Part shown: positions 4,158 to 63,200 of the stretch, one piece after another
Numbering within the stretch: the stretch's first letter is position 1
How the letters are laid out: each line of letters opens with the position of its first letter
Assembly: GCA_041661305.1 (NCBI GenBank)
Contig: JBAZUR010000001.1
Span: 313,986 to 377,985 of the forward strand
Origin: Minisyncoccota bacterium
GTDB lineage: Bacteria > Patescibacteriota > Minisyncoccia > Phycocordibacterales > VMEP01
Reading direction: 5' to 3'
Length of the DNA: 64,000 nt
Made by a program: the position numbers and the translations under genes
The notes under the pieces: generated by a model
Told to the model about the DNA's origin: nothing
Databases searched by the model: none
The model's input: the letters and a program-made list of their open reading frames with translations, nothing else

Positions 4158-4202
4158 AAGCCCCTGTTTGGTAAAATCAATAAAATTGCTATTATTGCCC
4201 TT

Positions 4203-5942: not shown

Positions 5943-6031
5943 AATATTTTAAATTGGGTTTTATTTTTTCTTAAACTAACCCCATTTTATTTTTTAAAAT
6001 ATTACGGAGCGCGACGGCGTGAGTATAGAAA

Positions 6032-39807: not shown

Positions 39808-39815
39808 AAAATTTT

Positions 39816-41906: not shown

Positions 41907-41914
41907 AAAATTTT

Positions 41915-44900
41915 CTAACGTCCTGAATTATACAATTGTTTTACTTCTGTCGCTGAAAGAGCCCGATTGTAATCACGAACGTCATCAATCTTCCCTTTAA
42001 ACAATCTGAAATTGTTAGCACCGCCAATACTAAAGCCCCCGCCAGAGCCCATAACGCCAGGCACGTTTGCGGTGCCGATTTGTACACCATCCAAGTACAC
42101 CCGGAGTGTAGTTTGGTCATATGTAAAGCCGAGGTGCATCCATGTATTTATTTTAATCCCCGCATTTGAGATGCTCACCCATTGTGGAGTATTAAATAAA
42201 TATCCATAGATGTTCACTGTGCCGTTACCAATCTCGAATAAGAAATTCCCAGCAATCATTGCTATCTCACACGTGTTCGGAGACGACCCAGGACACGTCC
42301 CTAGAAAATACGGGTTGACCCAAGCGAAAACGCTGGCTGAACCGTTTGCAGGAGATCCGCTGATCGAGACGTAGCTATCACCGTTTAAATTAAGCCCTTG
42401 TCCAATCTTCCCAACGACAGGAGAAGAACTAGTGCTCATCCCGACAAGTGTTCCATCATTTCCATTTCCACTCCTATCAAGTGCTTTATTGGTGCCCCAA
42501 TTCACATCTTTGCCATTAAAAGACCAAAGTCCAACAAGACCGTTTGTTAAAAAATTATTTTGAGACGTGTTTACTTGCGTTGCATTTTGTTTATACAGTT
42601 GTTGGATTTCAGCTACAGAAAGTGCACGGTTATAGATACGCAAATCATCCATTATTCCGTTAAAATAGCTACCAGAATAAAGCCCAATATTAAGTGCGTT
42701 GCCAGCCACTATTGAATTGCTTTGAGTAGAGCTGTCGTGTAATACACCATTAACGTAAATTTTAAAGTTGTTTGCCCCAGCATTTTTATCATAAGTTCCA
42801 ACAACGTGATACCACTGATTTGTGTTAAGTACACCTGAGTCCACAGTAACAATTCCTGTCGTGGCTAAAACAAGTTGAAATCTCAAAATATTGGAGCTTG
42901 GCCAAACATAAATCCCATATGAACTTTTATCCACGATTGCACGCCAAGAAGCTGTTGGGTGCCAATCGGGAGATTTTACCCAAACAGAAATAGTAATTGT
43001 GTCGCTAAGATTTAAACTTGAACTAGATCCTGCTGTTGCATAATTAGTGGACCCATTAAAATTTAGCGCCTTTCCTAATTTTCCTGTTATCCACGAAGGG
43101 CTTCCTACAAGTGTCGCGGTATTTCCATTACCAGAAATATCTCCCGCTTTAGCTCCAGCCCCATCATTGAAATTCCAGTAGCCGACGAGACCTGATTTAG
43201 GTGGTGTTTTTATTGTCGTCTTCGGTGCGATTGATTGTAGAGAAAAATATTCTGTATTTTTTGTCATACCAGTAAGCTGTGCGTCGGTCAAAGCCCTAGG
43301 CCATATTTTTACATTTTTAACATTAATACTTTGATTAGCGTCTACTGTGCCGGAATTGGCAATATAAATATAAGATGGAGAACCAGCCCAATTTAAAGTT
43401 TTAGCATTTCCGGAAACAGCATCGGCACTCTTTGCCCCATTTTTAAAAGAAGAAAATGTTGTAAGATTATTCGCCAGACGCAACGCAATTTTTGTTGGAG
43501 TATTGTATGTAATTGAAAATGGGTTTGATGCCACATCCCAAACTGTCCCAAAATCAACAAGAAGCGAGAGGTTTGTTCCGCTATATCCACCAAAATTTAT
43601 CATTGAATTGCTAGCATATGAACCAATTTGAATCGGCGACTTGCTTGGGTAAGAATCCCCATTGTTATTTTTTCTATTCATTTCTAAATAAAGAGAAAAC
43701 GCTCGTTCTCCTATATTTCCAGACGTAGGATATGCAAGTAAGTCTCCCGACCTAGCTACTGAAGCTGACGTCGTTGGAATATAAGATGATTCAAATGGAG
43801 CAGATTCAATTTGAGCACCCCATACATAAATTCCAGAAGAACCATCGCCTAAATATGCGTCGGTGCTTACGTGAGTATCATCAACAGGACCAAAAACAAC
43901 TGAAGTACTGTGAGAAGAAGGAATATCAAAACTACATCTATACCAACCATTACCAACACTTTGTATTGTTGGATTTAAATTTCCTGTCGCAGTAACAGTT
44001 GAAAGATTAAATGTTTGTTGTCCAGTATCGCCTCCGGCCCAAGACCAACCGCGTGCCTTCGTCCTACCAGCAGATTTCACATACACGGAAAAACGACGCA
44101 AAGTCCCAGCCGACGAAGCAATACTTTGCCCGCGACGATGTAGTGTTGTGTCTGCTGTTTCTACTAATTTTTCTGCCGTCATTGTTCCATTTGGCGCAAC
44201 AACATTGTCTACAGAAACTGTTAACCCTTCAGCGTTATTACTCCACGCCGCGTTATCAAACTGTTCAGAATACAAAGCTAAATTTGTTCGCGCACCTTCT
44301 GCTAAATAACCACGCAAAGTATTTGTAGAAATTTTTGCACCAGTATTAGCGGTCACAACATTAGACAAAACTGTATTTCCATTTTGTCTATCAAAATATT
44401 TCACGCCATCAACATTTGCTCCATGGTATGGCGAGGAAAGCACTCCTTTAGAAACATAATCGGACGGATTTTGGTTTGATTGCCCAGTAACATTTTCGGC
44501 TTGAGCTCCCCACACATACGCCGTGGCACCGGCACCATTAGCTACATTCTCATCAATATAGATATAAAAATAATGATTATTACCAGAAACCAGGTTCGTA
44601 GCTGTTACAGAAAAACGTTGCCACGACGTGGACAGTGTCACTTGCTGACCAATGCGGGTGGCGCCAGCGCTGGTATCATAGATAAGAAGCTTCGCGTTTG
44701 TCGCAGTTCCCCCTTTAATCCACACGCTATATGTTACTGCTGTGCCATTAACAGCACCAGCATTCTGCACAACGCGCTGTCCACCAACCCCGGATGTAGT
44801 AAATAAATCTGCGGTATTTGTTCCAATAGGAGATGTTGTTTGATTTGCGGTAACAGTGAGCGATACAGGAGTCCAGGAAGTACTAAAATCTTCCGTAGAA

Positions 44901-45190
44901 GATAGTAAATTTTCAACTCTTCTCGCTCCCTCAAAACGCACTTCCCCGCTTTTCGCTTGCCTAAACAAATTTTCCCAATCTTGCACATACGCCGTGGAAG
45001 CTCTTGAAAATACTGGATTTCCTCTACCTGTCTGAAGAATTATAGAATTCGTTAGATTAGCCTCAAAACTTGGTTGAAGAGAAGCTTGAACTGTCGCGGC
45101 AGCAGACACAGCGACGGGTGAGGTAATAAAAATTAAAAACAAAAAACAATTAGTAATTAATTTTATTTTATTTTTAAAATTTATTTTCAT
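41915..45190 (-). CDS. secreted multi-domain LamG (Laminin_G_3) protein, paralog 3 (1091 aa) with extra N-terminal beta-rich region
   Basis: Signal peptide MKINFKNKIKLITNCFLFLIFITSPVAVSAA. C-terminal two LamG units about 85% identical at the DNA level to paralog 2. QLYNSGR end. Confidence 0.75.
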   Translation of the reverse strand: MKINFKNKIKLITNCFLFLIFITSPVAVSAAATVQASLQPSFEANLTNSIILQTGRGNPVFSRASTAYVQDWENLFRQAKSGEVRFEGARRVENLLSSTEDFSTSWTPVSLTVTANQTTSPIGTNTADLFTTSGVGGQRVVQNAGAVNGTAVTYSVWIKGGTATNAKLLIYDTSAGATRIGQQVTLSTSWQRFSVTATNLVSGNNHYFYIYIDENVANGAGATAYVWGAQAENVTGQSNQNPSDYVSKGVLSSPYHGANVDGVKYFDRQNGNTVLSNVVTANTGAKISTNTLRGYLAEGARTNLALYSEQFDNAAWSNNAEGLTVSVDNVVAPNGTMTAEKLVETADTTLHRRGQSIASSAGTLRRFSVYVKSAGRTKARGWSWAGGDTGQQTFNLSTVTATGNLNPTIQSVGNGWYRCSFDIPSSHSTSVVFGPVDDTHVSTDAYLGDGSSGIYVWGAQIESAPFESSYIPTTSASVARSGDLLAYPTSGNIGERAFSLYLEMNRKNNNGDSYPSKSPIQIGSYASNSMINFGGYSGTNLSLLVDFGTVWDVASNPFSITYNTPTKIALRLANNLTTFSSFKNGAKSADAVSGNAKTLNWAGSPSYIYIANSGTVDANQSINVKNVKIWPRALTDAQLTGMTKNTEYFSLQSIAPKTTIKTPPKSGLVGYWNFNDGAGAKAGDISGNGNTATLVGSPSWITGKLGKALNFNGSTNYATAGSSSSLNLSDTITISVWVKSPDWHPTASWRAIVDKSSYGIYVWPSSNILRFQLVLATTGIVTVDSGVLNTNQWYHVVGTYDKNAGANNFKIYVNGVLHDSSTQSNSIVAGNALNIGLYSGSYFNGIMDDLRIYNRALSVAEIQQLYKQNATQVNTSQNNFLTNGLVGLWSFNGKDVNWGTNKALDRSGNGNDGTLVGMSTSSSPVVGKIGQGLNLNGDSYVSISGSPANGSASVFAWVNPYFLGTCPGSSPNTCEIAMIAGNFLFEIGNGTVNIYGYLFNTPQWVSISNAGIKINTWMHLGFTYDQTTLRVYLDGVQIGTANVPGVMGSGGGFSIGGANNFRLFKGKIDDVRDYNRALSATEVKQLYNSGR

Positions 45191-45204: not shown

Positions 45205-48200
45205 TTAAATAGCCGGAGTACTTGTTGCAACCGTATCTGTTGTTGTCGCTGTTTCTGTTGTAGTTGGTGCGACTGTTTCCACTGGTGTTGTGGTTGTTGT
45301 ATCAACGACAGGAGTCGTCGTTGTATCTGTCGTTGTCGTGGTGGTCTCTGTAGTTGGTGCGGTGTAGGTCGCAGTTGGTTCAGTGAGAGCATTCACACTT
45401 CCAGAAATCGCATCAACAATCGCTCCGACAACCGACGAGCTTGAAGTTTGTGTTGCTGTTGTTGCTCCACCGACCAAACACTCCCCTGACGTTGTTTTTG
45501 GAAGACCGCCGGAGATTGTTAGACAGTATGGCGTTCCAAACTCTTCGTCGTACATTGTAATTCCAGAACGTCTCTCTGGTGAACCAACCTTGATTCCACC
45601 ACGCACCTCAATATTGTCAGCCAATAATTTACCGCTTGCGTCGATGCTCCATGTGCCGGAGGACGAAGTGATTGCGCTAACATTTTCAACAGCAAATCCG
45701 GCCATATCAAGAACTCCTTGTGACAAAACTCGACCAGATACTGAATCAACGGCAAGTGTCGCAGAAGTTGATGTCGCGCTTGTCAAAGCCCCATCAAGTC
45801 GTGTCCAACCAACTGAAACAGCGACAGCAACCGAGCCCTGATAAACAAACGTGCCATCAACATTCACCGAGGTCACGGTCGAAGTTGCCGACTGAGTTCC
45901 GTCAAACAAACCAAGTGCTATACCTATTGTCTGTGATGATGTTGTCGCCTTCATACCAACACCAGGAACTGAAGATAGTGTGATGCGATCGCCCGGCTTG
46001 ATTACACCGCCCTCAGTTGAAACCTTAACGACAGTCTTTCCAGAAAATACGACTGATGGTGAAGTGCTTGTACTCGAGAACGTTAGTCCGGCAACGTTCG
46101 CGATTCCAACTATTGATGTTGCGTTTGTCTTGTCTGCGCGAACCAAAACGGCGGATGTTGTTGTTGCACCCATCTCACTTGGCGGTTCGACCGCCAAGTT
46201 GGTGGCTTGGGTTGTTGTGGCGCTCATTGCGACGATATCACCGGCCTCAACATCACTTGAGGAAAGGTCGGCAAAATGTTCTGCGATTCCTGATTCTGCG
46301 AGAGCAACTTTATCTGACGAGATTGTGCGTGAACCAAATGAGTCACAGAAAGATGCGACACAGATGCTGTCTGAAATAATTGCCTTGGCGGAAATAATAT
46401 TTGCTTTAATATCGCCAGCAAAAGTTAATACCGGTGTGCTTGTTGCGGAAATTGAAAGGTAGATATTTTCAGTAGAGCTTGAAGAATTATCAGAAGAACT
46501 AGAAACTTCACCGATTGAGAAGGTGCCATTTCTTGATTCAACAAACCAATCTTTTGTTGTTGTTCCGACCCCAACATTTCCACCACTAATTGAGTCGATA
46601 ACAGAAGCTGTGTCGGTGAGAGTCAAACGAGGAGAAGGAGCTGAAATTGATAGTGCTGATTTTGGTGCCGATGTGCCGATTCCAACACGACCATCGCCTG
46701 TAATTGCAAACGAAGTGTTACCAACAGCGTCAAGTGCGACGAAAGTCATCGTTTCTCCAATTTTGGAGGTTGAGCCTCCAAAATTGTTTTGGACGGTGAG
46801 GCGGGCGGTTGCGGTTGGTGCGATTCCTATCGCGCCGGTTGTTGAGCCGGTTGTTGCGATGCCGATGCCAACGTTGCCACTGAATACGGCGTCCGCGCCG
46901 ACGTTCAAATCTTTTGCAACGTAAATATCTTCTGTGTTTATTTTTTTAACCTCCACCGTGTCGCCAACAAATTTTCCATTCTCATCAACAGACCACTTTC
47001 CGTCAACACCGAGGATACTAGAAACTTCTTTTATAGAGCTACCTTTCAAATTAAGAACTGTCGTTGTTGAAAGGGTTGTTGCGCCTGTCGTCTTATCTAT
47101 GACCCAAGCATTTGTTGCAATTGTTGAAGTTGCCAAAGCGAGAGATGCGCTAATCTGAGTATCAAAATCTTTCATTGAATCAACTTTTGAAGCCAAGGTT
47201 TGTACGCCAGAGAGTGTGAAAGTTGCAAGTTTATACAAATCAACACCTTTTCCATCTGGGGAAAGAATTTCAGGGGCAACAACTTGCGCATCTTCAGCGA
47301 TAAAACCAAGACGAAGCGGTTCACTATTTTCCTCTGCGTTGTAACGATATGTCGCAGTCTTCAAATTAATGAGTTGATTAAACATGTCTTCCGCTGAAGA
47401 AGCAGTCGTGTAAGAAATATCTTTTTTCGCAGTCTTTGTTGATGTGTTCACGAAAGCGGTAGCGCCAACGTCTCCTGCAACAGAAAGCGCGCGATTTGGC
47501 GTCGTCGTGCCGATGCCGACGTTGCCGTTTACATCAACGGTTAGCACAGATGTTGTCGTGGCACTTGAAATAAAACTTGTGCGGGTGTTGAGTTCTTTCA
47601 CACCCTGCAATGCTAAGGCTCCTAACTTGCTGTAACTCACACCCCAAGCACCGCTATCTGTATCTTTTAGATTAGGGTCATCGTTATCGCTTCCTTTAAT
47701 TACAACCTCTGGAAATATTGGATACAATTCTTGAGCTATAACCCCAATATCATGTTTACCTGTTCCTTTCCAATCAAATGCTACGGCACGATAATTATCT
47801 AAACGATTAAGAACGGACAAACTTTCTATGTTTTTCTTAAGGCGAACATCTGATCCCGACACCCAGTCAACACCCTGATCTGCCACATACGGCCCTGCGG
47901 TAAATGTGATTGCATTTCCCGCCGTTCCAGATGGTGCGGTCATAACTCTTACGCCTATACCACCACCAGCACCATATCTAATTTGTGAAGCCTTATCACT
48001 AACATCGTAAAGATAAGAATCTGTGGTATCTGTGGTGCGGAAGTTGTAACCCGTAGACCCGTAGTTACCACCAGAATTTCCTATAGCCACCACTCCAACA
48101 CGCAACCCCGAACCAGCAGACCCAGATGGAATATTCAAAGAGTAATTTGCTGATGGAGTTGTCCCGATGCCAGTTTTTCCGTTAGTATCAATGGTCATTT

Positions 48201-51200
48201 GGCGATTCCCACCGTTAGTAGCGAATGTAATTGACCCTTGTGAGCGTAGGCCAAACAGAGAACTGTCGGCGGTGCCGAATAGAGTGGCGCCATAACCAAC
48301 ATATCCTCGAGCCCCATTAGCTGTACTATCATAAAACGTAGTGTAAGCTCCTGTTGATACATTAGACTCGAAGCGAGCTGTTTCACTTGTACCAGAATAA
48401 ACGTTCAAAACTGCTGATGGTGTTGTGGTACCAATACCGACGTTGCCACCAGTTGCTATCGTTATCCCATTACCACTACTGCCGAAAGTAGTTGTCGTAA
48501 TTCTAATTTTCCCAGTTGCTGAATGAGTACCAATGTAAGCCGTACCACTGGTTCTCAAGTACATTCCTGTATCATTTCCAAAGGTGTTTACATCGCCAAC
48601 TATGAATGCAGCAGAATTAGACCCTGAGTGACTAATATGTAGAGGGCCCGCCGGATTCGCCAGCCCAATACCCACACCTCCACCGTTCGTCACAATGAAG
48701 TCTGTCTTTGTTGATGAACCAATGACAAATGCAGGGCCGGTGATACCGTTTGGATTTACAGAAAGTTGACCCCAAGGTGTTGATGTACCAACTCCAAAAT
48801 TTCCACCATTGAAATATGAGTTTCCACTATTGTTGATTAAAATATTTCCGTTTGATGAACTGATACCTCCATCATTCATATACATCGAACCGGTGCCTGT
48901 GCGGAGTGTTCCTTTCACCCACAAGTTTGAAGCGAAGGTCGAGGTGGCATTTGTACCCGTGCCGTTCACGTCGATGAAGCCAGCGAAGGTTGAGGTGGCT
49001 GTTCCGCTAACAGTGAGGTTACCTGCGTTTGATACTGAGAATAGAGTTGATGTTGCGTATGCGGATGTTGAACTTCCTATTGAGAACAGTGTTGTGTTTG
49101 TCTCTCCTGCGTTTGCGTGAATAGAAAGTTTTGCATATGGCGAGGTGGTGCCGATGCCAACCTTATCAGCATAATCAGCCAAGAAAGATTGAACTCCGTC
49201 GTTTTGCCAACCACCAGCTGTTGCGTTGACTGGAGCAATGAGGGCGCCGGTGAAGGTTGAATTATTACCGAGTGTATGGTCACCACCACATGTATTATTA
49301 ATAATAAGGCTAAAATAATCAGTTGTTCCATTAGCATCTGCAACCACACTAAGCGAAGGTACTCCCACCACATACGAACCGTTACCAAGAAGAGCTGAAC
49401 TTGTTAATCCACCTCCATTCTTTGTGATATATACAGTAACACCATTTCCCACAGTACAAGTTGCAAAGGTATCTGTTGTGAGGTTTACAGTTAAAATGTA
49501 CTTGCCTGCTACCGTCGGCGTGAACCGTTCAGTAGTGAGGTCGAAGTTATTGTTGGTGTCAAACCTCTCCGCATCAAACGTAACGGTAGTATTACCTCCT
49601 CCTGCAGTAATGACCTGACTCGTCCCATTCTTATACACACTGAACGAAGGCCCAGTCGTCGCTGTATTCATTCCTTGCCATGTTCCATTTAGATTTTTGA
49701 ATTCAAGAGTGCCGGCATTGTCACGAAGACCGTAACCACCTGTGCCTGTTGATGTGCCGAAGTTTAGATAACGGCTCGTTCCATTGAGAAGTGTGTCGCC
49801 GTAGACAGTTAATTTAGCCGATGGGGTGGTGGTGCCAAAACCAACGTTGCCAGTTGAGTCAATACGTATACGTTCTGTGCCAGAAATAGTTATTCCGATA
49901 GCATTTGCAGAAGGTCTAAAGAAACCAGTGGTGGTATCATTTCCGACCGTAAGTGTCGGAATACTAGCCGACCCTGAAATCTGAATGGTTAATTGCGTGG
50001 GGTTCACTCTAGCTACTTCGATGCCATTAGCAACTAACCCTACGGTGTTGCCTGCGACCCTCGCAATACCAGTGTTTGTTGAATCGGCAAATGCAATAGA
50101 AGGTGCCGCCGTACTTCCATCAGGTATTATTATTTGTCCACTCCCAATAGTAAGTGCTGCGGTTGGGTTACTTGTGCCAATTCCAACCTTACCCCCATTC
50201 GTCACGATAAATTTAGTAGCAGTTGACGAACCAATTACAAACGCTGGGCCAGTGATACCGTTTGGGTTTACAGAAAGTTGACCCCATGGCGTCGTTGTAC
50301 CGATGCCGAGATAACCGTTATCATCAAGCCGCATCTTCTCAGAGAGCGAGTACCCGTTCAATGTGGAGAAGGTTAATGCAGAGGTGGTGGCAGTACCGCC
50401 AGCGTTAGTGAAAATAGCGCTGATACGACCGATGTTGGTGGTAGTGGCTGAGGTGTTACCGGCGGCAAAGAGGAGGCTGGTACTGATGCCGTTGGCTCCT
50501 GGAGTGGTAGTTGCCCACCCACCGTGAGTAATGGTAAGCACATCAGCATTAGATGAGGTGTTGCTGTCGAAGGTGCCCGCATAGAGCGCCGGGGAGAGTA
50601 CGAGGGAGGTGGAGGTAGATTGCATAAACGTTCCCGAACCATTACTGAAAAGACCCCCTTGACCGAGATTCAAACCACCTCTGACATAGAGGTTGTTTCC
50701 TATATCCATATTATCCCAAACCGTAACCGATGATGACTGCAAATTCCCCGTAAGGACTGTTGGTATTTCTATACCTGCAAGATTAACTACCGTAAGACGA
50801 CTCGTACCATAAGCTGTCACGTACGCATAACGACCGGAAACATAAACTGCGGCAGCGGAAGATAAGTTTGTGCTGTCTTTTAATGAACCGACGACGAATG
50901 GGTTAGTTGGAGTTGAAATATCAACCACAGTTAGGCGGTTACTACCGCTTAGTGTAGTTACGTACGCATAGCTCCCAGAAACAAACATCGACTGGGGAGC
51001 AGATAAATTATCTGCGTCAAATACAGACCCGACAACAACAGGGGTTGATGGGTTAGAAACATCAACTATAGTAAGACGGCTTGTACCGTTTGCGCCAACA
51101 TAAACATACCTACCGGAAGCATAAACGGAGATTGCACTGCCTAAATTTACAGCATCATTTACAGACCCTACAACAATAGGGGTTGTGGGGTTAGATATAT

Positions 51201-54200
51201 CAACTACAGTTAGGCGACTACTACCAGCCGCCGCTACGTATGCGTAACGACCAGAAACAGACAGACCAATTGCAATACTTAAATTTGTGGCATCATTTAC
51301 AGACCCAATAACAACAGGATTTGTTGGGTTAGATATATCAACCACAGTTAAGCGGGCACCGCCAGACGACGTTACATATGCGTAACGACCAGATACAGAT
51401 ACGGCTCGAGGAGCGTTTAATTTAGTGTTGTCTTTTACAGACCCCACAACAACAGGGGTTGTGGGATTTGATATGTCAACCACTGCTAAACCATTATTAT
51501 CTTGTGCCCCTACATAAGCATATCGCCCAGATACAGAAATAGAACGAGGAGCGTTTAAATTAATACTGTCTTTTACAGACCCGACAACAACAGGGGTTGA
51601 TGGGTTTGTAACATCAACAACAGTAAGTCTATCTCCACTATCTGATGTAACATAAGCGTAACGGCCAGAAACAGAGAGAGCCATAGCCCCAGGGAGATTA
51701 GTAGTGTCTGCAACACTACCCTTAACTGTCATGTGAAAATCACGAATGGATCCGAATTCAATCGGCGAAGCAGCGGGACCAGATGAAGTGGCAAAACCGT
51801 TAAGAAATGACATTAATGGTCCAGTTGCAGTTGTAGAGGTTGATTGCACAATCGCAAACGCCGGTAAAGTAGAAGAAGCGGAGATAGATAGTTTTGCGTA
51901 TGGAGAAGTGGTACCAACGCCGACGTTGCCGGTGGAGAGTGTGGAGCCTGTTCCGGTGATTCCCGTACCAAATATTATGTTTCCGATGTTGAGTTGACCG
52001 GAAGCGGTGGCTGATGGAAGTGAAATGTTATTACCGATAAGTATGTTTTGGCTACCAGTGGTGAGGTTTGCAATTGCAGTGGAGGAAGTTGCTGTTCCTA
52101 TCCAAATATTATTGGAACCAGTGGTGACACCATAACCAGACTGATAGCCGAGGAAGGTGTTGTAGTCGGAGTTGTTGCCAGCAGAGTAGCCAGACTGGTA
52201 GCCGACATAGGTGCCTCCTTGGTTGTAGTAAGAAGAAGGACCTCGAGCTGCGGAATAACCAACTGCAGTGGAGGAAGTGGCTGAGGTATTGTTGAAGAGA
52301 GCGTTCATGCCATTTGCTGTATTGTTGGTGCCGGTGATGTTGTTGTAGAGGGCTTGCGTGCCATTTGCGGTGTTTTGATAACCTGTGGTGTTTAAATAGA
52401 GTGCCTGTACTCCGCTTGCGACATTGTTATAACCGGTGGTGTTAAAATAGAGAGAATTAACACCACTAGCGGTGTTGTTATAACCAGTAGTATTCGCTAC
52501 AAGAGCTGCTGTACCACTTACGGTGTTGTAATAACCAGTAGTGTTAGCTAAAAGAGAATTCATGCCGATTGCAGTGTTGTAATAGCCAGTGGTGTTGGCT
52601 GTAAGTGCTTTTCCACCGACTGCAGTATTGTTAACACCGGTGGTGTTGGCGTAAAGAGCTTGATAACCATTTGCGGTGTTGTAATAACCTACTGTATTTG
52701 CTGTAAGGGCGTTATACCCAACAGCTGTATTATATTGTGCCGTAGAAATTGTCGGTGTCGTTGCGAGAGCGCCTTGACCAACGGCGACAGAATACCAAGG
52801 TGTTGATGATGCGCTCATCCATCCTGCGGCACTTGATGCTCCGACGGCGAGGGCATTGTTGGTGGTGCTTGCATAAAGGACGGTATTTCCATCTTGCTTG
52901 TATCCGCCGAACTGATCGGTGTTGATGAACCCAGCGACGTCTAGTTTGTATGATGGAGTTGCGTCGCCGATGCCAATATTTCCTGTTGAAAGAGTCGAGC
53001 CTGTGCCGTTGAGATTAACACCATAAATTAAATTTCCAATATTGAGCTGATTTGAAGCTGTTGCTGATGCGACTGCGACATCATTACCGATAGAAATGTT
53101 GTTTGAACCTGTGGTGACTTGGTTGTATGAAGCGGAGATAGTTGAGTTACCAAGGAAGACATTCCTTGCACCAGTGGTGACACCGTAGCCGGAGTTATAA
53201 CCGACGAATGTGTTGTAGTCGGAGCCAGTGGCGGCGCTAAAGCCAGCTGAATAACCAAGATACACGCCACCTTGATTTGAGTAGGAAGCGTTGCCTTCTG
53301 CGGCCGAATATCCAATCGCTATGGAGGAGGTAGCGGAAGCGTTGTTGTGGAGAGCACTGCGACCGATGGCGATGTTAGTATTACCGGTGGTATTGGAGTA
53401 GAGGGCATTCGCACCAATAGCGGTGTTGGAGGCGCCGGTGGTGTTGGAGTAGAGAGCATTCAAGCCATTAGCTGTGTTGGAGGAACCGGTGGTGTTGAAG
53501 TAGAGGGTGCTCATACCGTTAGCAGTGTTGAAAGAGCCGGTGGTGTTGGAGTAAAGGGCATCCACACCGATGGCGGTGTTTTTCTTGCTGGTAGTGTTAG
53601 AAGTAAGGGCGTTATACCCAACAGCTGTATTGTATTGTGCTGTGGCATTAGTAGGTGTCGTTGCAAGGGCGCCTTGACCAACGGCGACAGAATACCAAGG
53701 TGTTGATGATGCGCTCATCCATGAAGATGCTGAGGATGCGCCGACAGCTAATGAAGTATTAGTCGTGCTTGCGTACAATACTGTGTTCCCATCTTGCTTG
53801 TATCCAGAATATTTATCGGTATTGATAAAGCCTGCGACATCAAGTTTGTATGAAGGAGAGGTTGTGCCAACTCCAACATTTCCAGTTGGAGTAATTTTTA
53901 ATCTTTCAGTACCAGCACCAGATGTTCCTGTATAAAAAGACATTCCTCCTGTTGCTGACCCTGAAGACTGTAGATAAAGTTCTCCGGCGTTTAATCCTAT
54001 TGTTGACTTATAACCACCGTTATCCCAAAGCATTAACTTCTCGCCAGCGCCAACAACGCTAGGCGCAGCTGGGGCGGCATATCCAGAATTATTAAAAGTA
54101 ATTAAGGTGCCAGGACTTGCGGCAGCTCCTGTGTTTGCTCCAAGTTTTATATTTCCTAATACATCTAACGCAACGCTTGGATTACTTGTTCCAATTCCAA

Positions 54201-57200
54201 CATATCCATTACTTGCGACATGGAATGCGGTTGATGTTCCCGCACCGCTTGTTGATGATGCGATTGTGAATAAAGGAGTTGAACCACCTGCTGTTGCTTG
54301 GACTGAGAGTTTTGCGTATGGTGAAGTGGTGCCGATGCCGAGGTTGGTGCCAGTGCTGAGGTACGTGCTCGCACCAGAGTTGGTGAAGAAGTTGGTACCG
54401 CTGGATGAGCCCACACATACGCCATTTACTGCGAAACATCCGGTAGCGAGGTTGATACCATAGCCAAATGTCGAAGTTGCCGTGTTTGAGATATTGATTG
54501 TATTCGCGCCGGTGTTGCCAAGAGAGAGGAGTGTTCCTGGAGTTGTGGTGCCGATGCCGACATTACCACCACTTAATACTGTTAGGTATGTTGTCTGTGT
54601 TCCACCACCAGTATGTGTTCCGTAATTTAATGTGCCTCCAGAATAACTAAACTGACCAGCACTACTTCCGTCGTGCCACAATTCAAACTGTGGATTTGAT
54701 GCATCAATAACACGAGTTTTACCAAATGCTGCAGTGTAGCTGTTGGCAAATGAGTTGACGCTTGTTTGGTTACGAATATTTCCACTCACATCCAATCTCG
54801 CACCTGGTGAATTTGTCCCTATTCCAACATTTCCACCAACAAACAAATTAGTTGTTGACGCTGTGGTTGAATAGAAGTTTGTTGTTGTTGCACTTGTTCC
54901 AGTTGCATTTACGAATGTGAAGTTTTGGAATGATACTGTGCCGGTTGCTGTGATGTTTGTTGCTGTGAGTGTGCCGGCAAAGTATCCTGAACCGTTTACA
55001 GAAAGCATAGCGAATGGAGAGGTGGTGCCGATACCAACATTTCCAGAATTGTTTATTACAAACAATGTTGATGAAGCGGAGTTAACCGCTTGGAATACGT
55101 TTTCTGCTGTTGTGGTTGCTGACCATACTGTTAGTTTTGCGTATGGTGTTGATGTACCAATGCCGACGCGAGTGTTTGCCATACTGCCTGTGCCGTCTGC
55201 TTGGCCGTAGATTGTGAGGACGGGGTCACCGTTTAGTTGAGCAACATATCCTTCAACTGTACCCTGTGCGACGTTTGAACTCACGAGCATATCTGTCCAT
55301 GTGACCAAACCTGCATCAGCATCAAAATTGGTTGCACCTAGATTAAGATTTGAAATTGAAGTTATTCCACTTGTATAGTCGTATGCAAAATCACCGTTGT
55401 TCACATTCAAACTTCCAGCAAACGTGGAGGTACTTGTGTTGGTGACAATAAGATTTGTGAGTGTTGTTGTGCCGGCAGATACTGTGCCTGTCGCCGTGAA
55501 GTTGCCCCCAATATATGTATCACCCGCTACAGATAGTTTTGCGAATGGTGAGGTTGTGCCGATGCCGACGTTGCCTGTATTATCAATTCTCATTCGCTCA
55601 ACATTTGTTGCTGAAGTACCAGTGTAGAAAAACATCCCACCAGTAGAGTTAAGAATGCGGTTATATACCGAGGTTCCATTGTAAGAGGTGAAGTCCATGC
55701 CACCAGCCCAATTGTTATCACTAGAAGAACCAAGGATTCTAATTCCAGAGACTGATTGTGCGAGGGTCCCACCAGAATTAGCAGTTAAAAGCCCGGTCAT
55801 ACTTCCTGTGCCGTGAACACTAAGTGTTGTTGCCGGACTCGTCGTGCCGATGCCGACGTTGCCGGTGCTTGTAATTCTCATCGCTTCTACAGCAGATGCG
55901 TTTCGGAATATATTGTTTCCCGCATCAAAGTAATTGTTGGAGGTATTATTATATCCGATGATTAAATTAGCGACTCCACTATTTAACACATATAATTTTG
56001 AATTAACTGGATCCGTCGTCCCAATACCAACGTTGCCTTCTACCATAAGACCGTTTGTTGGGGCAGCGATATTGTAATTTGCACCGATGGATGCGCCGCC
56101 CGAAACTGCGAGTTTACTTGCCGGACTCGTCGTCCCGATGCCGACGTTGCCCCCGTTCGGTTGCAACACCAAATCCCCTGACGCGTGTATATCCAAATCG
56201 TTTGCTCGCGTAGAGTGAGTCGAATTGTATCGAATAAGATAAGCGGGTGTCGCGGACTGTCCCGTATCCTCTCCAAATGTCAAAATACTCTGTGCGCCCG
56301 TGCCGGTGCTAATGTTCGCAATTTTTATTCCCGCGATACCATTCCGAGATCCCGATAAGACACTGTAAAACGCCTGAGACACTACCCCAGCATCAAGAGT
56401 AAGAAGAGCACTCGGACTCGTTGTACCAATACCAACATTGCCGTTAGCCATTATTCTCATCTTCTCTCCAATAGTGCCACCAGTATGAAATGCTAGGTCA
56501 TATGAACCTGCGGAGACGACAGACTGAACACGTCCAACGGTAGTACCACCAACTCCGCTAGTAAATGCAAGTGATGCACCGTCGGCCACCGAACCACCGT
56601 GACCAGCAGAGTTTATTCTAATGAAATCAACATTTGCTCCAGCACTTCGTGCTCCATAAACATCGAGTAGCGACGTCGGTGTCGTTGTTCCAATACCAAC
56701 GAAACCTGTTTCGGCAATACGTGCAACTTCAACAGCTCCTGGTTTAAAAATTATGTCGTTATTATTCGCCGCAGAATTCCCTGTTTGAATTGTAAGAGGA
56801 GAACTATCCTGACTTGCAAGATTTTGAATTGTCACCCCACCAGAAGCATTTAATGTTAGTTGATTGTTACTTAGAACGGTCAAAGATGCGCCGAAATTAA
56901 CGATTGAACCAGAGCTTCCAAGGTCTAATTTATTTGAAGGAGAAAGTGTCCCCAAACCAACGCGACCCGTTGAATAATCGACAACGAATGAGTTCGTATC
57001 AACTATCATTCCTCCTGCAAACGTACTCGTCGCAGTGGTTGAAGTAGCAAAGATAGCAGAGACTTGTGGAGTTGATGATGCGACAAGAGCACCTGAACCG
57101 TCGGTTGTGATGACCATGTGTTTACCTAAAGATGAGAATGTTGGTGATGTAGAAGAAAAAATATTTGTAGCATAAATATTTTGCCACCTCATTGTTGGGC

Positions 57201-60200
57201 TACCTAAGTCATATGTATTATCAGCATCTGGGCCAACATTTCCCAACACTTGAAGTTTAAATGTTCCTGGTGTCGTAGTGCCTATTCCTACATACCCTGA
57301 ATTGTTTATTACAAACAATGTTGATGAAGCGGAGTTAACAACTTGAAATACATTTTCTGCTGTTGTGGTTGCAGACCATACTGTGAGTTTTGCATATGGA
57401 GTGCTTGTGCCTACACCAACACGTGTGTTTGCCATACTGCCTGTGCCGTCTGCTTGGCCGTAGATTGTGAGGACAGGATTGCTGTCTAATTGAGCGGTGT
57501 AACTTTGAACTGTTCCGTTTGCAGAAGAAGATGTGACTGGCATATCAACCCATGAGAGTATTCCCCCGTCGGTATCAAAATTCATTGAACCAAAATTAAG
57601 ATTTGAAATCGATGTTGAAGTGGTGGAAGCTTCGTAGAAAATATCGTAACCACCAATATTCATATCTCCATTGTCTGTGACTTGCAAGAGTGTTGTTGAG
57701 GCACTATTCACCAACGCAAATGTCTGCCCTGTTGTTGTGCCTGTCCCCCACACTGTTAGTTTTGAATATGGTGTTGATGTGCCGATGCCGACATTGCCTG
57801 CACTGGTAAGTCTCATTGCCTCAACGGAACTACCAGGACTCAACACAATCGCACCATTAGCGTTCATTGAAAGGAGTGAGAGAAGTGGGCTGCCAGAGTT
57901 GTAACTGTATTGTATCTGAGCACCAGCGTCATCAGCTGGAGTGCCAAATAAGATACGGGCAGGATTCGCATCTGGGCTGATGAAATGCATTCCTACATCA
58001 GAAGAATTCTCTATCACAAGGTCGTCAGCCGCTGTGTTAGCAATAATGGTTCCCGCACTTCCTGAGAATATGTTCAGCTTCCCTTCCGGCCCCGTCGTTC
58101 CGATACCGACGTTGCCACTTGTTTTTATTCTTACTTGTTCCGATGCTGTCCCTGCAGAATACGGCCTAAATACAATGTCGCCAGAATTATCCGCTCCATT
58201 TCTTACCGCACCTATATCTGCTATCGGATTTGATACTCCTGCAATATCTTGAATTGAAAAAGTTACGGCTGAGCCAAAACCATTTATCATATCACCTGTT
58301 GTTTTGTGTCTTACCATTAAACCTCGTGCAATAGAATCAATTGCGGCAGATGTTCTTTCTGAGGTGATCGTATAATCACTCCCGCTAGTCACATCTAACT
58401 TAACCCCTGGTGTTGATGTGCCAATGCCAACGTTGCCCGTCATAAACGCAAAGAGTGACGCATTAAATTCCATTGGCAAATAAACATTACCGGCATCGTT
58501 AAATGAACGAACTGAGGCCCCGGCCCCGGCAGTTAGTGCGCCGATAACGTCGACATTAACGTTAGTCCCCGCATGAGTACGAAATGTTCCCCAATTATCC
58601 AATTTATATGCTGGTGTTGCTGTCCCAATACCGACGTTGCTGCCGACAGGGTTCAAAAGCAACGGATATGTCTGATCACCGCTTCGCGCCGCCTGAATAA
58701 CACCGCGATTGTTCGTTGTGTCAATCATGAAAGAAAGTCGTTTGAGCGGATCTGTCGCACCGCTTATCGCCAATTGTGCACCGCCGTTGTTGTCGTAAGG
58801 ATAGGGCCCCGTTCCATCTGCTACGATTTGTGTCTTGAATCCAGGTGTCGTTGTCCCAATACCGACGTTGCCGGTTGTATCGATTGTAACGCGAGCAGAG
58901 TTATTAGTCGTAAGCGTAAGTGGGTCTGAAGTATACGTACCCATGAAAAGATCATCATTATTATCAACATATATACGCGAACGGAGACCAGCGAGACCCG
59001 TGCCTTTCGTAATCGCGAAACCAGCGTATCCAGTTAGGGCATCGTTATTAACCGCGGAGAGAGGGTAAGTGCCATAAGAACCGCTTGTGGTATTGCGTGA
59101 TACAACGAGTGCATTATCAGGGCTCGTTGTTCCAATACCGACATTGCCTCCAGATGGTTCTAAGACTAATGCGTCGTGTGTCACCCCCTCTGTAATTGCT
59201 CCAATATATCCGTATTTATTGGTTGTGTTGTAGCCAACATATACACCCTGTGTGTTTGCCGCGTAAAACTTTGCAATGGAATTTGCATATATAGTTCCAC
59301 TGCTACCAAGTACGTTCAGTTTCGCGTTCGGTGTCGTCGTGCCGATGCCGACGTTGCCGGAAGATAATAATGTCATCACATCAGTATCTGCATCACTACC
59401 ACTTGCATAGTTAAGAGAAATTGTTAGTGCTGTACGTGAATTGTTTGTTGCGTCCTGCCACCTTCCCATCCAAAAATCAGCCACCTGCTCGTAGGTTGAT
59501 TCTTGTGGAAGCATTAGACTAAACAATTTCTGATTTTTGATAACAGTTGAACCAGCAGAAACTGCGGTCCCGATAACATTCAACTTACCAGAAGGATTAG
59601 TAAACGAATCGTTTGTGCCAACATTCAAGTATCCTGCGAAAGTTGATGTTGCTGTTGTTGATGTAGCAAAGATAGCAGCGACTTGTGGAGTTGATGATGC
59701 AACAAGAGTACCTGAGCCATCAGTTGTGATAACCATGTGCTTACCTAGTGATGAGTAGACAGGAGCAGTGGTTCCATAGATTGTGCCGTCTACTTCTAGG
59801 TCACCTGCTATATATGCAGAGTTGTAGTAGTTAGTTGAAGCTATGCTGTCTGGTGTTGATGAACCGACTGTGAGTAATACTGTTGGTGAGGTGGTGCCGA
59901 TGCCGACTTTGCCATCGTAGCTCACTGTTAATATTGAAGCGTTGGTTGAACTTGAAACCTGGAATATAGGGCGAGTGGAACCGGATGTTCCCATTACAGA
60001 AAGTTTTGCAAATGGAGTTGATGAGCCGATACCAACGCCATAATTTTGAATACCACCTACCCCATCAGACTCACCATAAACAGTGAGCATTGAGTTGCCA
60101 TCAAGATGTGCTGTGTAGCTTTCCACTGTTCCGATTGCTGAATCAGAAGTAACAGGCATATCAATCCAAGAAAGTGCGCCTGCGTCAGAATCAAAACTTG

Positions 60201-63200
60201 TTGCACCAAGATTTAGATTTGAAACAGAAGTTATGCCGGATGAAAAATCATAAGTTAAATCACCCGAACCAACGTTCAAGCCTCCGGCGAATGTTGATGT
60301 TGCTGTTGTTGATGTTGCGTAGAAATAATCTGCGACAACAGGGCCGGCGACAGAAAGTTTTGCATATGGAGAAGTGGTGCCTATGCCGACGTTGCCAGTG
60401 CTTGTTATCCTCATCTTTTCTGTACCGCCTGTGATGAAGTTAATATCAGCGGAACCTGTTCCTGAAGTGTTGTTGTAAGCACGAATAGAACCAATATTAG
60501 AAGCGTAACTTATACCAAGACCTTGTCCTGTGCCCCAATATGAAGGCGAGCCAACAGCTTGAACAGATTGAGCGGTAACCCCCCCACCTTCTACGTGGAG
60601 TTTATCTGCCGGACTCGTCGTGCCGATGCCAACATTGCCGGCGTTGGTAATAATAAATTTAGTCGTTGTGTTATCGCCGACTTCAAGGATAGAATCCGAA
60701 ACATTGAAGTTACGACCAAGGAATGTTTCGTAGGTGCCTTGTTGGTTGACCCAACGTATCGTCGAGTTAGAGATATCGGCGTTCGTCGTCTTTAATATCA
60801 TCGCAACAGCCCCATAAAGATTAGAACCGGAATTCACACTCTCTGTGGCTACTGTAAGTGCTGACCCAGAAACAAGAGCCGTAGACGTCCCTACTACTGT
60901 GTTACCAAAGACACTGAGCTTTGCCGTTGGCGTCGTCGTTCCCACCCCGATATTTCCACCAAGTCTTTGCAAAATCAAGGGAAGTGATGTTTGGGCATAC
61001 TGAGTCACACCAATCTCACCAAATCCATTCGTGGTATCAACACCAATATGCATAAAACGATTACCAGCGATACTGTTTGTTTGTCCTATTCTTAATGTGT
61101 CGCTCACCGTACTCTCCACAGAAAGTTTTGCTTGCAAATCTGTAGTTCCAATACCAACCCTACTTGTTGAATAATCAACAACCAAAGAATTCGTATCAAC
61201 CGTTAAACCTCCAGCAAAAGTTGAAGTTGCGGTGGTTGATGTAGCAAAGATAGCAGAAACTTGTGGAGATGATGATGCGACAAGTGTGCCTGAGCCATCA
61301 GTGGTGATAACCATATGCTTACCAAGAGATGAGTAGACAGGAGCTGTTGTTCCATAGATTGTTCCATCTACTTCTAGATCACCTGATATGTATGCAGAGT
61401 TGTAGTAGTTTGTTGAAGCTATGCTGTCTGGTGTTGATGAGCCGACTGTGAGTAAGACTGTTGGTGTGGTGGTGCCGATGCCGACGAGGCCGTTTCCTTT
61501 CACGTTAAATAATACACTTGAACTTGAGTTCTGAACTTGAAAAATATCTGCAGTTTGTGATGATGCTCCTTGGAATACTGCTAGCGTTCTTGTGGGGGTG
61601 CTGGCATCTTGCGTAAACAACATTGCTTGTGGTGCTGAGTCATAGGCACTGTTCGAGACAGAGAACTTAAGTGTTCTGTTTGCTGAATAAATTTGATTTT
61701 GGACACCTGTTAGTTGCCCAATGGCCATCGTCCCCCCACCAGCATAAGACAAGTTGATACCTACTGTCCCTGCCCCAAGATTCTCCAGTGAAAGTGCATA
61801 CTTGTTTGTTATGTTTCCCTGATTGATTACGAATTTTGAGCTTGGATTTTCCGTACCAACTCCGACATTTCCGCTTGCAAGCACAGTCATTAAAGTAGTA
61901 GTGGAATTTCCAGCTGTTGTTGAAGCAATAGTGAATAGCGGTGTGTTTACAGCTGTGGTCGCAGAGTTTGAAATTGAAAGAACGGAATTCGGTGTCGTTG
62001 TGCCGATACCGACCAAACCATTACTATCTATTCTCATTCTTTCTACTATATTAGTGCCATTAGAAGTACCAAAACCAAGAGTTCTTTCTGCGATAGTAAC
62101 TACAGAAACCCCGTTGGTTTCCAAAGTACCAGTGCTTGACATCTTCATTGTCAAACCATTTACCATAGAAGGAGAACCACCGTTATATAACTGATAACGT
62201 GGACTTGCTTCACTGCTATAGTAATACGCAAACGTTCGGCCAGTCCCAATTCTCCAATTATCAGAAAGACTAGAGGTGATATGTAGTGGGGATTGCGGAT
62301 TACTTGTCCCAATTCCTACATTTCCACCGACAAACAAATTTGTCGTTGACGCTGTAGTTGAGTAGAAGTTTGTTGTTGTTGCACTTGTTCCTGTCGCATT
62401 TACGAATGTGAAGTTTTGAAGAGTTGATGAACCTGTTGCTAATAGATTTGCAAATGAAAGTGTGCCTGTCGCGGTAATGTTTGTTGCTGTGAGTGTGCCA
62501 CCAAAGAATCCTGAGCCGTTAACGGAGAGTGTGGTGAACGGTGATGAGGTCCCGATGCCGACATTACCGTCGTAACCAACAGTTAACATAGATGCGTTTG
62601 TTGAACTTGAAACTAGGAACACAGGACGAGTGGAACCAGATGTTCCCATTACGGAAAGTTTTGCCCAAGGAGTTGATGATCCGATTCCAACGCCATAATT
62701 TTGAATACCACCTACCCCATCAGACTCACTATAAACAGTGAGCAGAGCGTTGCCGTCTAGGTGTGCAGTGTAGCTTTCAACTGTTCCGATTGCTGAATCA
62801 GATGTCACTGGCATATCAATCCAAGAAAGAGCACCTGAGTCGGCATCAAAACTTGTTGCTCCAAGATTTAAACTTGAAATAGATGTGACTCCAGATGAAA
62901 AATCATAAACCAAACTATCTGAACCAACATTCAACCCGCCAGCAAACGTTGATGTTGCGGTGGTTGATGTTGCGTGGAAATAATCTGCGACAACAGCTCC
63001 GGCAACTGAAAGTTTTGCGTAAGGTGATGTGGTGCCGATGCCGACGTTGCCACCAAATATTGCGGTATCTGTTCCTCCTATTTGAGTCGTACCTCCAGAG
63101 AATGAACCAAATGCGACATTGTTCCCCTGGAAGCTCATCACCGGTGTTCCACTGGTAGTAAAATTGTAAGAAGTATATGCACCTCCTCCAGCACTAAGAC

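Follow-up and report, generated by a model that had tools for sequence, protein, structure and literature searches.

Two consecutive Peptidase_S74 domains in a giant fibre protein of a Patescibacteria-like bacterium, a probable C-terminal maturation cassette

The giant fibre gene and its genomic context

The window analysed here, a stretch of 64,000 nucleotides, belongs to the chromosome of a Patescibacteria-like bacterium and not to a phage. Patescibacteria are ultra-small, mostly uncultivated bacteria that are believed to live on other cells. The gene under study encodes a giant fibre protein (Table 1). Its reading frame is unbroken up to the edge of the window, so that the protein exceeds 6264 aa and its true N-terminus lies outside. 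About 41 fibre motifs of the 'GxVGIGTTxP' type are found along the ORF, and LVIVD and S74 are the sole Pfam matches. Within the window, no transmembrane-like segment was observed in the giant fibre (maximum Kyte-Doolittle mean of 1.37 over 19 aa), and neither a Pfam match to an NDT80-type DNA-binding domain nor a transmembrane helix downstream of the S74 copies was found. A plus-strand reading of the coordinates given in the initial annotation was rejected, as the translation gave stops only; the feature lies on the minus strand.

Housekeeping genes (DnaE, ThrRS, GyrB, PheST, RpsB, Tsf, RF, GAPDH, transketolase) occupy the 45 kb that lie downstream, where no phage gene is found. In one related genome, the giant fibre gene was found at a syntenic housekeeping locus.

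Table 1. Position of the giant fibre ORF, of its two S74 domains with their predicted catalytic residues, and of the flanking regions.
Feature	Position in the window	Strand	Details
Giant fibre ORF	45205..63999	minus	listed as 6183 aa (45205..63756), GTG start at 63756
S74 copy 1	47551..47874	minus	aa 5295-5402; canonical SDVRLKKNI type; short helix at aa ~5375-5399
Ser5302 codon, predicted nucleophile of copy 1	47851..47853	minus	predicted scissile bond Gly5301-Ser5302
Lys5307 codon, predicted general base of copy 1	47836..47838	minus	conserved column
Linker, aa 5403-5438	47443..47550	minus	one fibre rung 'VNGNVGIGTTTPNRALSVAGDVGATAFVNT'
S74 copy 2	47104..47442	minus	aa 5439-5551; divergent STKTAKKDI subtype; 45-residue C-terminal helix, aa 5507-5551
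Ser5439 codon, predicted nucleophile of copy 2	47440..47442	minus	predicted scissile bond Thr5438-Ser5439
Lys5444 codon, predicted general base of copy 2	47425..47427	minus	conserved column
C-terminal region, aa 5552-6183	45208..47103	minus	no Pfam or NCBIfam family match
Conserved beta-rich module, aa ~5823-5982	~45811-46290	minus	

Two S74 domains and their catalytic residues

Two consecutive Peptidase_S74 domains had been placed at 47170-47880 by the initial annotation, and both are present above the Pfam cut-off. In a Pfam hmmscan (PF13884, gathering cut-off of 22 bits), copy 1 scored 52.1 bits (E 8e-14, model positions 1-57 of 58) and copy 2 scored 29.4 bits (E 1e-6, positions 3-55 of 58). 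An HMM of our own, built from 37 S74 segments, delimited copy 1 at aa 5295-5402 (99.7 bits) and copy 2 at aa 5428-5537 (91.2 bits), that is 47551-47874 and 47146-47475, to which the annotated span corresponds nearly exactly; the peptides quoted for the domains were also found in the translated ORF. Their distance from the C-terminus had been set too low: it amounts to 882 and 745 aa (from Ser5302 and Ser5439) instead of 450-700 aa, and 646 aa rather than about 450 extend beyond copy 2.

When the Ser-Lys dyad was compared with the S74 alignment, as had been suggested at the outset, both copies were positive, with S5302/K5307 in SDVRLK and S5439/K5444 in STKTAK. Only four columns are invariant among the 37 segments (Ser, Lys at +5, a Gly and an Ala), and both copies carry all of these residues, while S5439 and K5444 were the sole invariant columns of a 72-sequence alignment. 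The cleavage positions are predicted ones, placed by likeness to P586-S587 of MyRF and T1263-S1264 of T5.

Copy 2 lacks the Asp and the Arg of the canonical SDxRLK. This is not disqualifying, because T5 pb1, whose motif reads SGIEYK, self-cleaves at Thr1263-Ser1264, and a Thr-Ser bond is also found in copy 2. In MyRF, the S587A and K592A mutants remain uncut and R590A is only partly impaired, but S587A still crystallised as a trimer. In the same way, T5 pb1 S1264A folds and keeps its chaperone attached. Ser and Lys are thus needed for cutting and dispensable for folding in these two proteins, yet strictly conserved here, which argues for retained catalysis. The Tyr-x-Tyr pair Y615/Y617, required for correct cleavage of mouse MyRF, has its positional counterpart in a Y-R-Y of copy 2, whereas F-D-W stands there in copy 1.

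The two copies are only 21% identical to each other, whereas copy 1 reaches up to 55% identity with terminal S74 domains of other proteins. The pair thus results from the fusion of two subtypes, not from the decay of a duplicate. Copy 2 is a member of a distinct and widespread S74 subtype rather than a decayed duplicate of copy 1.

Predicted structures

The AF2 monomer model of copy 2 was of high confidence (pLDDT >90), and its top Foldseek match was the ICA domain of MyRF (7dc3, E 1.4e-5, TM 0.66 normalised to the target), followed by the T5, endoNF and GA-1 chaperones. The predicted fold of copy 2 is thus MyRF-ICA-like. For copy 1 the confidence of the model was low (pLDDT 40-58), probably as a result of most homologues being stacked on copy 2 in the alignment. 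Only a short helix follows copy 1, without a long coiled coil of the kind that drives trimerisation of MyRF. In endoNF and T5, the folding sensor is an Arg from the upstream beta-helix of the neighbouring chain, and no equivalent of it was identified in the giant fibre.

Conservation of the pair across homologues

A first homologue search gave only proteins of at most 471 aa, mostly fragments, and full-length architectures were drawn from genome loci as well as from a representative library. Our own S74 HMM was run on the 138 best representatives of clusters at 50% identity or less. Two copies were counted in 80 of them, three in 2 and five in 1 (representative P0146, with domains about 1,100 aa apart and Ser and Lys in each), and 54 single internal domains were also present. 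The adjacent pairs numbered 76, or 77 with the giant fibre. Ser and Lys were found in 77 of 77 first copies and in as many second copies, and the Ser-Ser spacing had a median of 135 aa (range 118-177; 137 aa in the giant fibre). Positions conserved at 95% or more were 13 in copy 2 versus 5 in copy 1. These are two bona fide S74 domains with all invariant residues of the family, and the pair, its spacing and both dyads are conserved family-wide.

The alignments delineate a tandem-S74 family made of a canonical S74 domain, a stalk rung, a STRxAKKDI-type S74 domain about 135 aa later and an extension of 130-750 aa, and the giant fibre fits it with 137 and 745 aa. STRxAKKDI...YRY...GKGVDLYKLATF may serve as a sequence signature for finding such cassettes. 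The named members are Patescibacteria MAGs, taxon names being available for a minority of homologues only. A conserved internal two-domain version of S74 is found in the largest surface proteins of such bacteria. The homologues start with an HTH and a membrane anchor or with a signal peptide: a hydrophobic segment is found at the N-terminus in 37 of 67 long homologues, often behind an HTH, and the last 400 aa are free of such a segment in all of them.

Two processing events or one degenerate copy had been envisaged for the locus. Ser and Lys are kept in every first and every second copy, and two processing events, though predicted, are favoured over one degenerate copy. A related possibility, which we hold to be rather unlikely, is that a single copy cuts while the other, be it the short-helix copy 1 or the divergent copy 2, forms a non-cleaving trimerisation or registration knot in the fibre. 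The absence of the canonical Asp and Arg from copy 2 and that of a long coiled coil from copy 1 would fit such a division of labour, and non-cleaved auto-chaperone domains are known, for example the P22 tailspike fin. Nevertheless, the dyads are complete at both positions in clusters that share half of their residues or less, neither Ser nor Lys is required for folding in MyRF and T5, T5 cleaves with SGIEYK, and copy 2 is the more conserved of the two.

The pair could also be a by-product of module shuffling without any function as a pair, in which a '[stalk rung]-copy 2-C-terminal module' recombined at the common GNVGIGTTTP onto a fibre gene ending in S74. Relatives carrying the copy-2 block without copy 1 (L005, L007-L009), the single internal domains among the best representatives, the terminal position of copy-1-type domains in other proteins and the low identity between the copies are all in line with it. 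This scenario accounts for the origin of the pair but not for its maintenance in 76 other divergent clusters, with a narrow spacing and both dyads intact, while loss of Ser or Lys would be expected in at least some lineages if one copy were redundant. As an explanation of the tandem it is therefore considered quite improbable.

Comparison with viral S74 proteins

Phages are the best-known source of the S74 family, and tail-fibre families of PHROG match the S74 regions, copy 1 being matched by their C-terminal ends. Viral contigs were scanned with a tandem profile, followed by an HMM scan of the matched ORFs. Each of the 71 S74 ORFs that this profile recovered from IMG/VR contains a single, terminal domain that starts 74-214 aa from the ORF end. 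Apparent two-copy viral matches ('19-242') were rejected, one viral domain having aligned to both query copies; by HMM scan all were single. No GenBank phage record covered 80% or more of the tandem query. The phage-type architecture, one domain at the extreme C-terminus, is not that of the giant fibre, whose two domains are internal.

Taken as a tail fibre of a prophage, a tailocin or a contractile-injection system, the gene would owe its S74 domains to ordinary phage features, as its PHROG matches might suggest. This origin is very improbable given the housekeeping surroundings, the synteny in the related genome, the N-termini of the homologues and the uniformly single viral domains. The gene lies on a bacterial chromosome and has homologues anchored in the membrane, a setting for which the phage tailspike framing of the initial annotation is wrong.

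The region downstream of copy 2

Beyond copy 2, four further GxVGIG-type motifs (aa 5627-5726) and a Thr-rich tail (aa ~6130-6183) were found around the beta-rich module. These fibre-type motifs recur without a chaperone of their own, which the simple picture of a discarded module leaves unexplained. The region had been described as Ig-like or beta-rich with a Thr-rich tail; the beta-rich character (AF2) and the tail were borne out, but no Ig-like Pfam domain was detected in it, although PF16403 is carried by homologues in their C-terminal tail. The NFGGSTSK motif (aa 5658-5665) lies downstream of both domains, as had been noticed, and would sit in the predicted released C-terminal fragment.

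The AF2 model of the C-terminal 587 aa had a mean pLDDT of 53.6 and was treated as uninformative; Foldseek gave no significant match for it in the PDB, the best being phage capsid decoration proteins (E 0.12). The conserved C-terminal motif AEYF..GDIV...GRVPVKVS.EGG.I..GD.IT.SS.PG.GMKAT was considered as a phi29-type Peptidase_G2 autochaperone and rejected, on the basis of Pfam searches at E<=10 with the region and three homologues and of NCBIfam, which returned nothing relevant.

Proposed maturation of the fibre

The two S74 domains probably constitute a conserved cassette for the C-terminal maturation of a giant fibre that is trimeric and anchored to the cell, in which two autoproteolytic cuts would remove a C-terminal assembly module. 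Three exported chains would be put in register at their C-terminal ends by this module and the long copy-2 helix. Folding would then spread N-ward, first via the one-rung stalk and next through copy 1, until it reaches the fibre, as it does in the intramolecular chaperones of phages. In each S74 trimer once formed, the Ser-Lys dyad would cut just before its Ser (G5301-S5302 and T5438-S5439), yielding a mature fibre of at least 5301 aa, a copy-1 piece of 137 aa (14.5 kDa) and a C-terminal piece of 745 aa (75.4 kDa) that starts with copy 2. For the giant fibre, we infer trimerisation, the folding order, either cut and the fate of the fragments.

If both sites are cut, these fibres mature by programmed double cleavage, and termini at S5302 and S5439 as well as fragments of 14.5 and 75.4 kDa could be sought by metaproteomics. 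The cassette would also help to understand how the chains of a trimeric fibre exceeding 6,000 residues get into register. The catalytic residues kept in both copies, and the recurrence of the pair in at least 76 further giant proteins of distant relationship, point to a two-cut maturation of such fibres. Literature searches on tandem or CPR-associated S74 domains returned no relevant paper describing it.

A bolder and unlikely proposal is that these giant fibres process themselves as polyproteins, with every S74 domain acting as an autonomous cut site, so that one polypeptide gives several separate trimers. The 75-kDa trimer released by copy 2 might then act independently, be it as a shed adhesin, as a signal or as a factor directed at the host. 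It would in that case be an extracellular prokaryotic counterpart of MyRF release and not a discarded scaffolding.

Comparison with known systems

In the literature, S74 chaperone domains are described as single terminal caps that phage fibres discard; MyRF, whose domain is internal, is the one exception. The endosialidase of phage K1F, endoNF (MEROPS S74, PF13884, PDB 3GW6), belongs to the same Pfam family as both copies and likewise carries its S74 domain behind a fibre or beta-helix region. The Ser...Lys(+5) spacing is common to all and the full SDxRLKxNI signature is found in copy 1, while the predicted fold of copy 2 is weakly related to 3gw6 (Foldseek E 0.73). EndoNF has one discarded domain at its extreme C-terminus, whereas in the giant fibre, which is cellular and exceeds 6,200 aa, two domains lie at a distance of 137 aa and 646 residues follow.

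The L-shaped tail fibre pb1 of T5 (PDB 4UW8, 8HQZ) is matched by the S74 profile (E 2e-13). Its SGIEYK after Thr1263 parallels the STKTAK after Thr5438 of copy 2, both being devoid of the Asp and Arg of SDxRLK. In T5, a single terminal domain (133 aa) caps the receptor-binding tip; unlike it, copy 2 has one stalk rung and another S74 domain upstream and a large module downstream.

The trimeric fibres Bd3182, Bd2439, Bd1334 and Bd2133 of Bdellovibrio bacteriovorus (PDB 8OJN, 8ONB, 8ONC, 8ONF, 8OML, 8OND) are also chromosomal and share the 'GxVGxGTTxPxxxLxV' beta-helix motif with the giant fibre, a likeness that does not extend beyond the fibre rung, where identity is 28-46% over 26-70 columns.

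Finally, MyRF is a eukaryotic membrane-bound transcription factor with one ICA domain, whereas the giant fibre is bacterial and extracellular, with neither an NDT80 domain nor a downstream transmembrane helix, and is thus not a transcription factor of the MyRF type. The sequence alignment with its ICA domain (PDB 7DC3) spans the stalk motif (one side reading GNVGIGTTTPNRALSVAGDV), the Ser-Lys motif and the Y-R-Y pair, and the linker of the giant fibre aligns with the beta-helical stalk immediately upstream of the MyRF domain. Both the MyRF ICA domain and copy 2 are internal, and copy 2 would part the N-terminal from the C-terminal portion of its protein.

Location and fold of the two domains

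Translated on the plus strand, the interval 47170-47880, in which two tandem S74 domains had been proposed, is full of stops, and the pair is in fact encoded on the minus strand within an ORF listed as 6183 aa. From its GTG start, the same frame continues for 243 nt to the window edge with no stop and encodes a further fibre repeat of the same kind ('NVGVGTTSPWGLLSV...'). As the frame is open to the edge, the giant protein exceeds 6264 aa and its N-terminus lies beyond the window. All the peptides quoted in the initial annotation were found in this ORF. Its distances have to be corrected: counted from the C-terminus, the serines of the two copies are 882 and 745 aa away instead of about 450-700 aa, and 646 aa rather than some 450 follow copy 2.

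Features of the giant fibre and its downstream neighbours (~, approximate)
Feature	Residues (aa)	Window (nt)	Strand	Remark
Giant ORF as listed		45205-63756	minus	6183 aa
Open frame upstream of GTG		63757-63999	minus	fibre repeat
'NTAxGxxAL' repeats	~3330-3900			long runs
LVIVD repeats	~3990-4340	~50737-51789		six
Copy 1	5295-5402			S74 HMM
SDVRLKKNIESL peptide	5302-5313	47818-47853	minus	quoted initially, present
Copy 2	5428-5537			S74 HMM
YRYNAEENSEPLRLGFIAEDAQVVAPEIL stretch	5470-5498		minus	quoted initially, present
GxVGIG-type motifs	5627-5726			four
NFGGSTSK	5658-5665	46762-46785	minus	quoted initially, present; hairpin
Beta-rich core of C-terminal module	~5823-5982	~45811-46290		
LamG-like paralogues		37723-45190	minus	694, 696, 1091 aa
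Second hairpin copy		~39757-39780		in ORF 37723-39807

As had been claimed, both domains belong to the S74 family. Each exceeds the curated cut-off of 22 bits for Pfam PF13884: copy 1 reaches 52.1 bits (E 8e-14) over model positions 1-57 of 58, and copy 2 reaches 29.4 bits (E 1e-6) over positions 3-55. Beyond these matches, the last 983 aa gave no Pfam match at E<=1, and an NCBIfam search of the same region returned none. An HMM derived from an alignment of 37 S74 segments scored the copies at 99.7 and 91.2 bits, respectively. Copy 1 corresponds to the C-terminal ends of PHROG tail-fibre profiles (295-422 of 449, 887-987 of 1000 and 1439-1550 of 1567), and copy 2 matches a different PHROG family, 'tail protein'. 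In an AlphaFold2 model of aa 5286-5576 based on 72 aligned sequences, copy 2 is confidently predicted (pLDDT >90 over aa ~5405-5545) and ends in a 45-residue helix. Copy 1 is poorly modelled (pLDDT 40-58), likely because the alignment supplied few partners for it.

The helix is followed by four further fibre motifs, a module ('AEHF..GDIVA...GKTVVKVSTEGGVIKPGDRITLSSVPGVGMKAT..IGIAL') conserved in 22 homologues with near-invariant residues around '...GKTVVKVSTEGGVIKPGDRITLSSVPGVGMKAT...IGIAL', and a Thr-rich tail. This module has no Pfam or NCBIfam family, its AlphaFold2 model is confident only in the beta-rich core, and a structure search gave no significant neighbour (best E 0.12, phage decoration proteins). 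It is present in two copies in the homologue P0122 and in one in several Parcubacteria, Sungbacteria and Vogelbacteria proteins.

Other elements were observed along the fibre. The LVIVD repeats (PF08309, E 4e-58) are preceded by 'NTAxGxxAL' repeats that recall trimeric-autotransporter heads and are without Pfam match. The DNA encoding NFGGSTSK is a perfect hairpin, TTTTGGAGG-CTCAA-CCTCCAAAA. An identical stretch of 24 nt is found close to the 5' end of a downstream LamG-like ORF, and a variant encoding NFGGEASK (GGAGGCGAAGCCTCC) lies in ORF 39816-41906. The hairpin is a repeated palindromic element within coding sequence.

Catalytic residues

The only invariant columns of the 37-segment alignment are Ser, Lys(+5), one Gly and one Ala, and each copy carries all four; the Ser-Lys dyad, suggested initially as the feature to check, is thus kept in both. 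In the 72-sequence alignment of whole homologues, for which MAFFT stacked the homologues' S74 domains on copy 2, S5439 and K5444 are the sole invariant columns. The motif reads S-D-V-R-L-K-K-N-I in copy 1 and S-T-K-T-A-K-K-D-I in copy 2. The lack of canonical Asp and Arg in copy 2 would not in itself exclude catalysis, since the phage protein T5 pb1 cleaves itself at Thr1263|Ser1264 with Lys1269 (PMC4690869) in a motif that the S74 profile aligns as S-G-I-E-Y-K, and since cleavage of the mouse transcription factor MyRF is abolished by S587A and K592A but only lowered by R590A (PMC8326128). MyRF also requires Y615 and Y617 for cutting at the correct site (PMC8326128); the aligned positions are Y-R-Y in copy 2 and F-D-W in copy 1.

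The tandem as a family trait

A word-indexed search returned mostly fragments, three of which (P0001, P0006 and P0010) contain the same pair. Among species-representative genomes, four Patescibacteria loci hold it, in ORFs of at least 4192 (L002), 2738 (L003), at least 1190 (L004) and at least 872 aa (L006), and L005 and L007-L009 contain the copy-2 block alone. In L007 (ORF 3554-5569), L008 (ORF 711-2663) and P0011, an intein-like C-terminal block, 'VGREQVYDIEVEGTHNFVGNDIFAHNT', lies directly upstream of rungs and a copy-2-type S74; P0011 also has a Pfam Intein_splicing match.

When 1.84 billion cluster representatives were searched exhaustively, 28,980 matched at E<=1e-3, and 169 of them reached E<=1e-30. 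Among 138 new sequences from the best 150 matches, the S74 HMM found two domains in 80, three in two and five in one. The latter, P0146 (5473 aa), has S74 domains starting at aa 1483, 2647, 3741, 4924 and 5052; each of the first three closes a fibre unit of ~1,100 aa, followed by a repeated 'GNGTATTTN...CLGGDCRSSWPTIAS' junction, a layout that resembles a polyprotein of fibres.

These representatives contributed 76 adjacent pairs, 77 with the window's protein, in carriers of up to 7,920 aa. From one Ser to the next, the pairs measure 118-177 aa (median 135; 137 here), and 132-744 aa (median 362) separate the second Ser from the C-terminus. The copies share only 21% identity. Against copy 1, terminal S74 domains from other proteins reach 55% identity, and in many bacteria the 'SSRxxK' variant of copy 2 serves as a conventional terminal chaperone ~95 aa long. 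As the copies are so divergent and each type occurs as a terminal domain elsewhere, the pair is a fusion of two S74 subtypes and not a recent duplication. That it is a shuffling by-product devoid of joint function is quite improbable in view of the conserved arrangement and spacing.

Ser and Lys were kept in all 77 first and all 77 second copies. MyRF and T5 proteins with Ala in place of the Ser still fold and crystallise (PMC8326128, PMC4690869), and the main argument for cutting by both copies, putatively at G5301|S5302 and T5438|S5439, is that residues dispensable for folding were lost in none of these divergent pairs. Conservation of at least 95% concerns 13 positions in the second copy (both Tyr included) versus 5 in the first. 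A single active copy is unlikely, given the dyads retained on both sides.

Genomic context and viral counterparts

The window is bacterial chromosome of Patescibacteria/CPR type (41% G+C) with housekeeping genes including DnaE, ThrRS, GyrB, PheS/T, RpsB, Tsf, a release factor, GAPDH and a split transketolase. The 45 kb that follow the fibre gene contain no phage genes, and in a related metagenomic contig the homologous gene adjoins the same GAPDH, RpiB, Rpe and transketolase block. In this contig (L001, 1042-8499), the fibre gene appears to be split into many short ORFs (130-591 aa), and a 470-aa protein is predicted for the tandem S74 part, reflecting either a degraded gene or assembly frameshift errors.

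When the tandem region (291 aa) was compared by tblastn with 50,697 GenBank phage records, 238 records matched, none of which covered 80% of the query; among the matches listed, the alignment was to one copy only. In an IMG/VR set (80 loci retrieved by a profile of eight tandem regions, plus one earlier locus), each of the 71 S74 domains was the only one in its ORF, and they began 74-145 aa from the ORF end, except for one at 214 aa. In viruses, the classical architecture is therefore single and terminal, whereas that of the giant fibre is double and internal. Despite the PHROG matches, a phage or tailocin fibre is most improbable.

A hydrophobic segment was found in the first 400 aa of 37 of 67 long homologues and in the last 400 aa of none. 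It is often preceded by a 'SGYxSDYLxRLxRxGKI...GRxW'-type HTH, other homologues having a classical signal peptide instead. No TM-like segment occurs in the window's part of the protein, for which the homologues point to a likely N-terminal anchor, extracellular fibre and distal C-terminus. The L003 ORF (3470-11683) and many representatives (for example P0145, P0147, P0154 and P0157) start with one or two excisionase-like HTH followed by the hydrophobic segment, which implies that the giant extracellular fibre has a DNA-binding-like head in the cytoplasm. Directly downstream of the giant gene, three successive paralogous secreted proteins carry repeated 'GLVGYWxFNDGxGTKAxDxSGNGNTG...DDVRIYNRALSAxEIxQLY' units, LamG/lectin-like in appearance, and may be functionally linked to the fibre.

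Possible mechanism and relation to known systems

S74 domains trimerise, nucleate folding of the upstream fibre from its C-terminal side and, only as trimers, cut the bond before Ser with Lys as base (PMC8326128, PMC4690869). The giant fibre has two such domains, each with every invariant residue, in a conserved arrangement. A double cut would free two fragments, an excised one of 14.5 kDa and a C-terminal one of 75.4 kDa. Plausibly, the C-terminal module and long copy-2 helix would clamp three very long anchored chains in register and copy 1 would chaperone the real fibre tip, which the two cuts would then clear.

The papers searched describe neither a conserved S74 tandem, placed internally and found in giant chromosomal Patescibacteria fibres, nor proteins that contain as many as five S74 domains, although proteins with several S74 domains may already be listed in database architecture tables. 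In the PDB, the top Foldseek match was the MyRF ICA domain (7dc3, E 1.4e-5, TM 0.66 normalised to target), followed by Bdellovibrio fibre beta-helix domains, T5 pb1 with its chaperone (4uw8) and the endoNF (3gw6) and GA-1 (3gud) chaperones. The stalk rung before copy 2 (GNVGIGTTTPNRALSVAGDV) aligns in a PDB sequence search with the MyRF stalk and also with a Bdellovibrio fibre. What is already known comprises the S74 family and its chemistry, with MyRF as one internal example.
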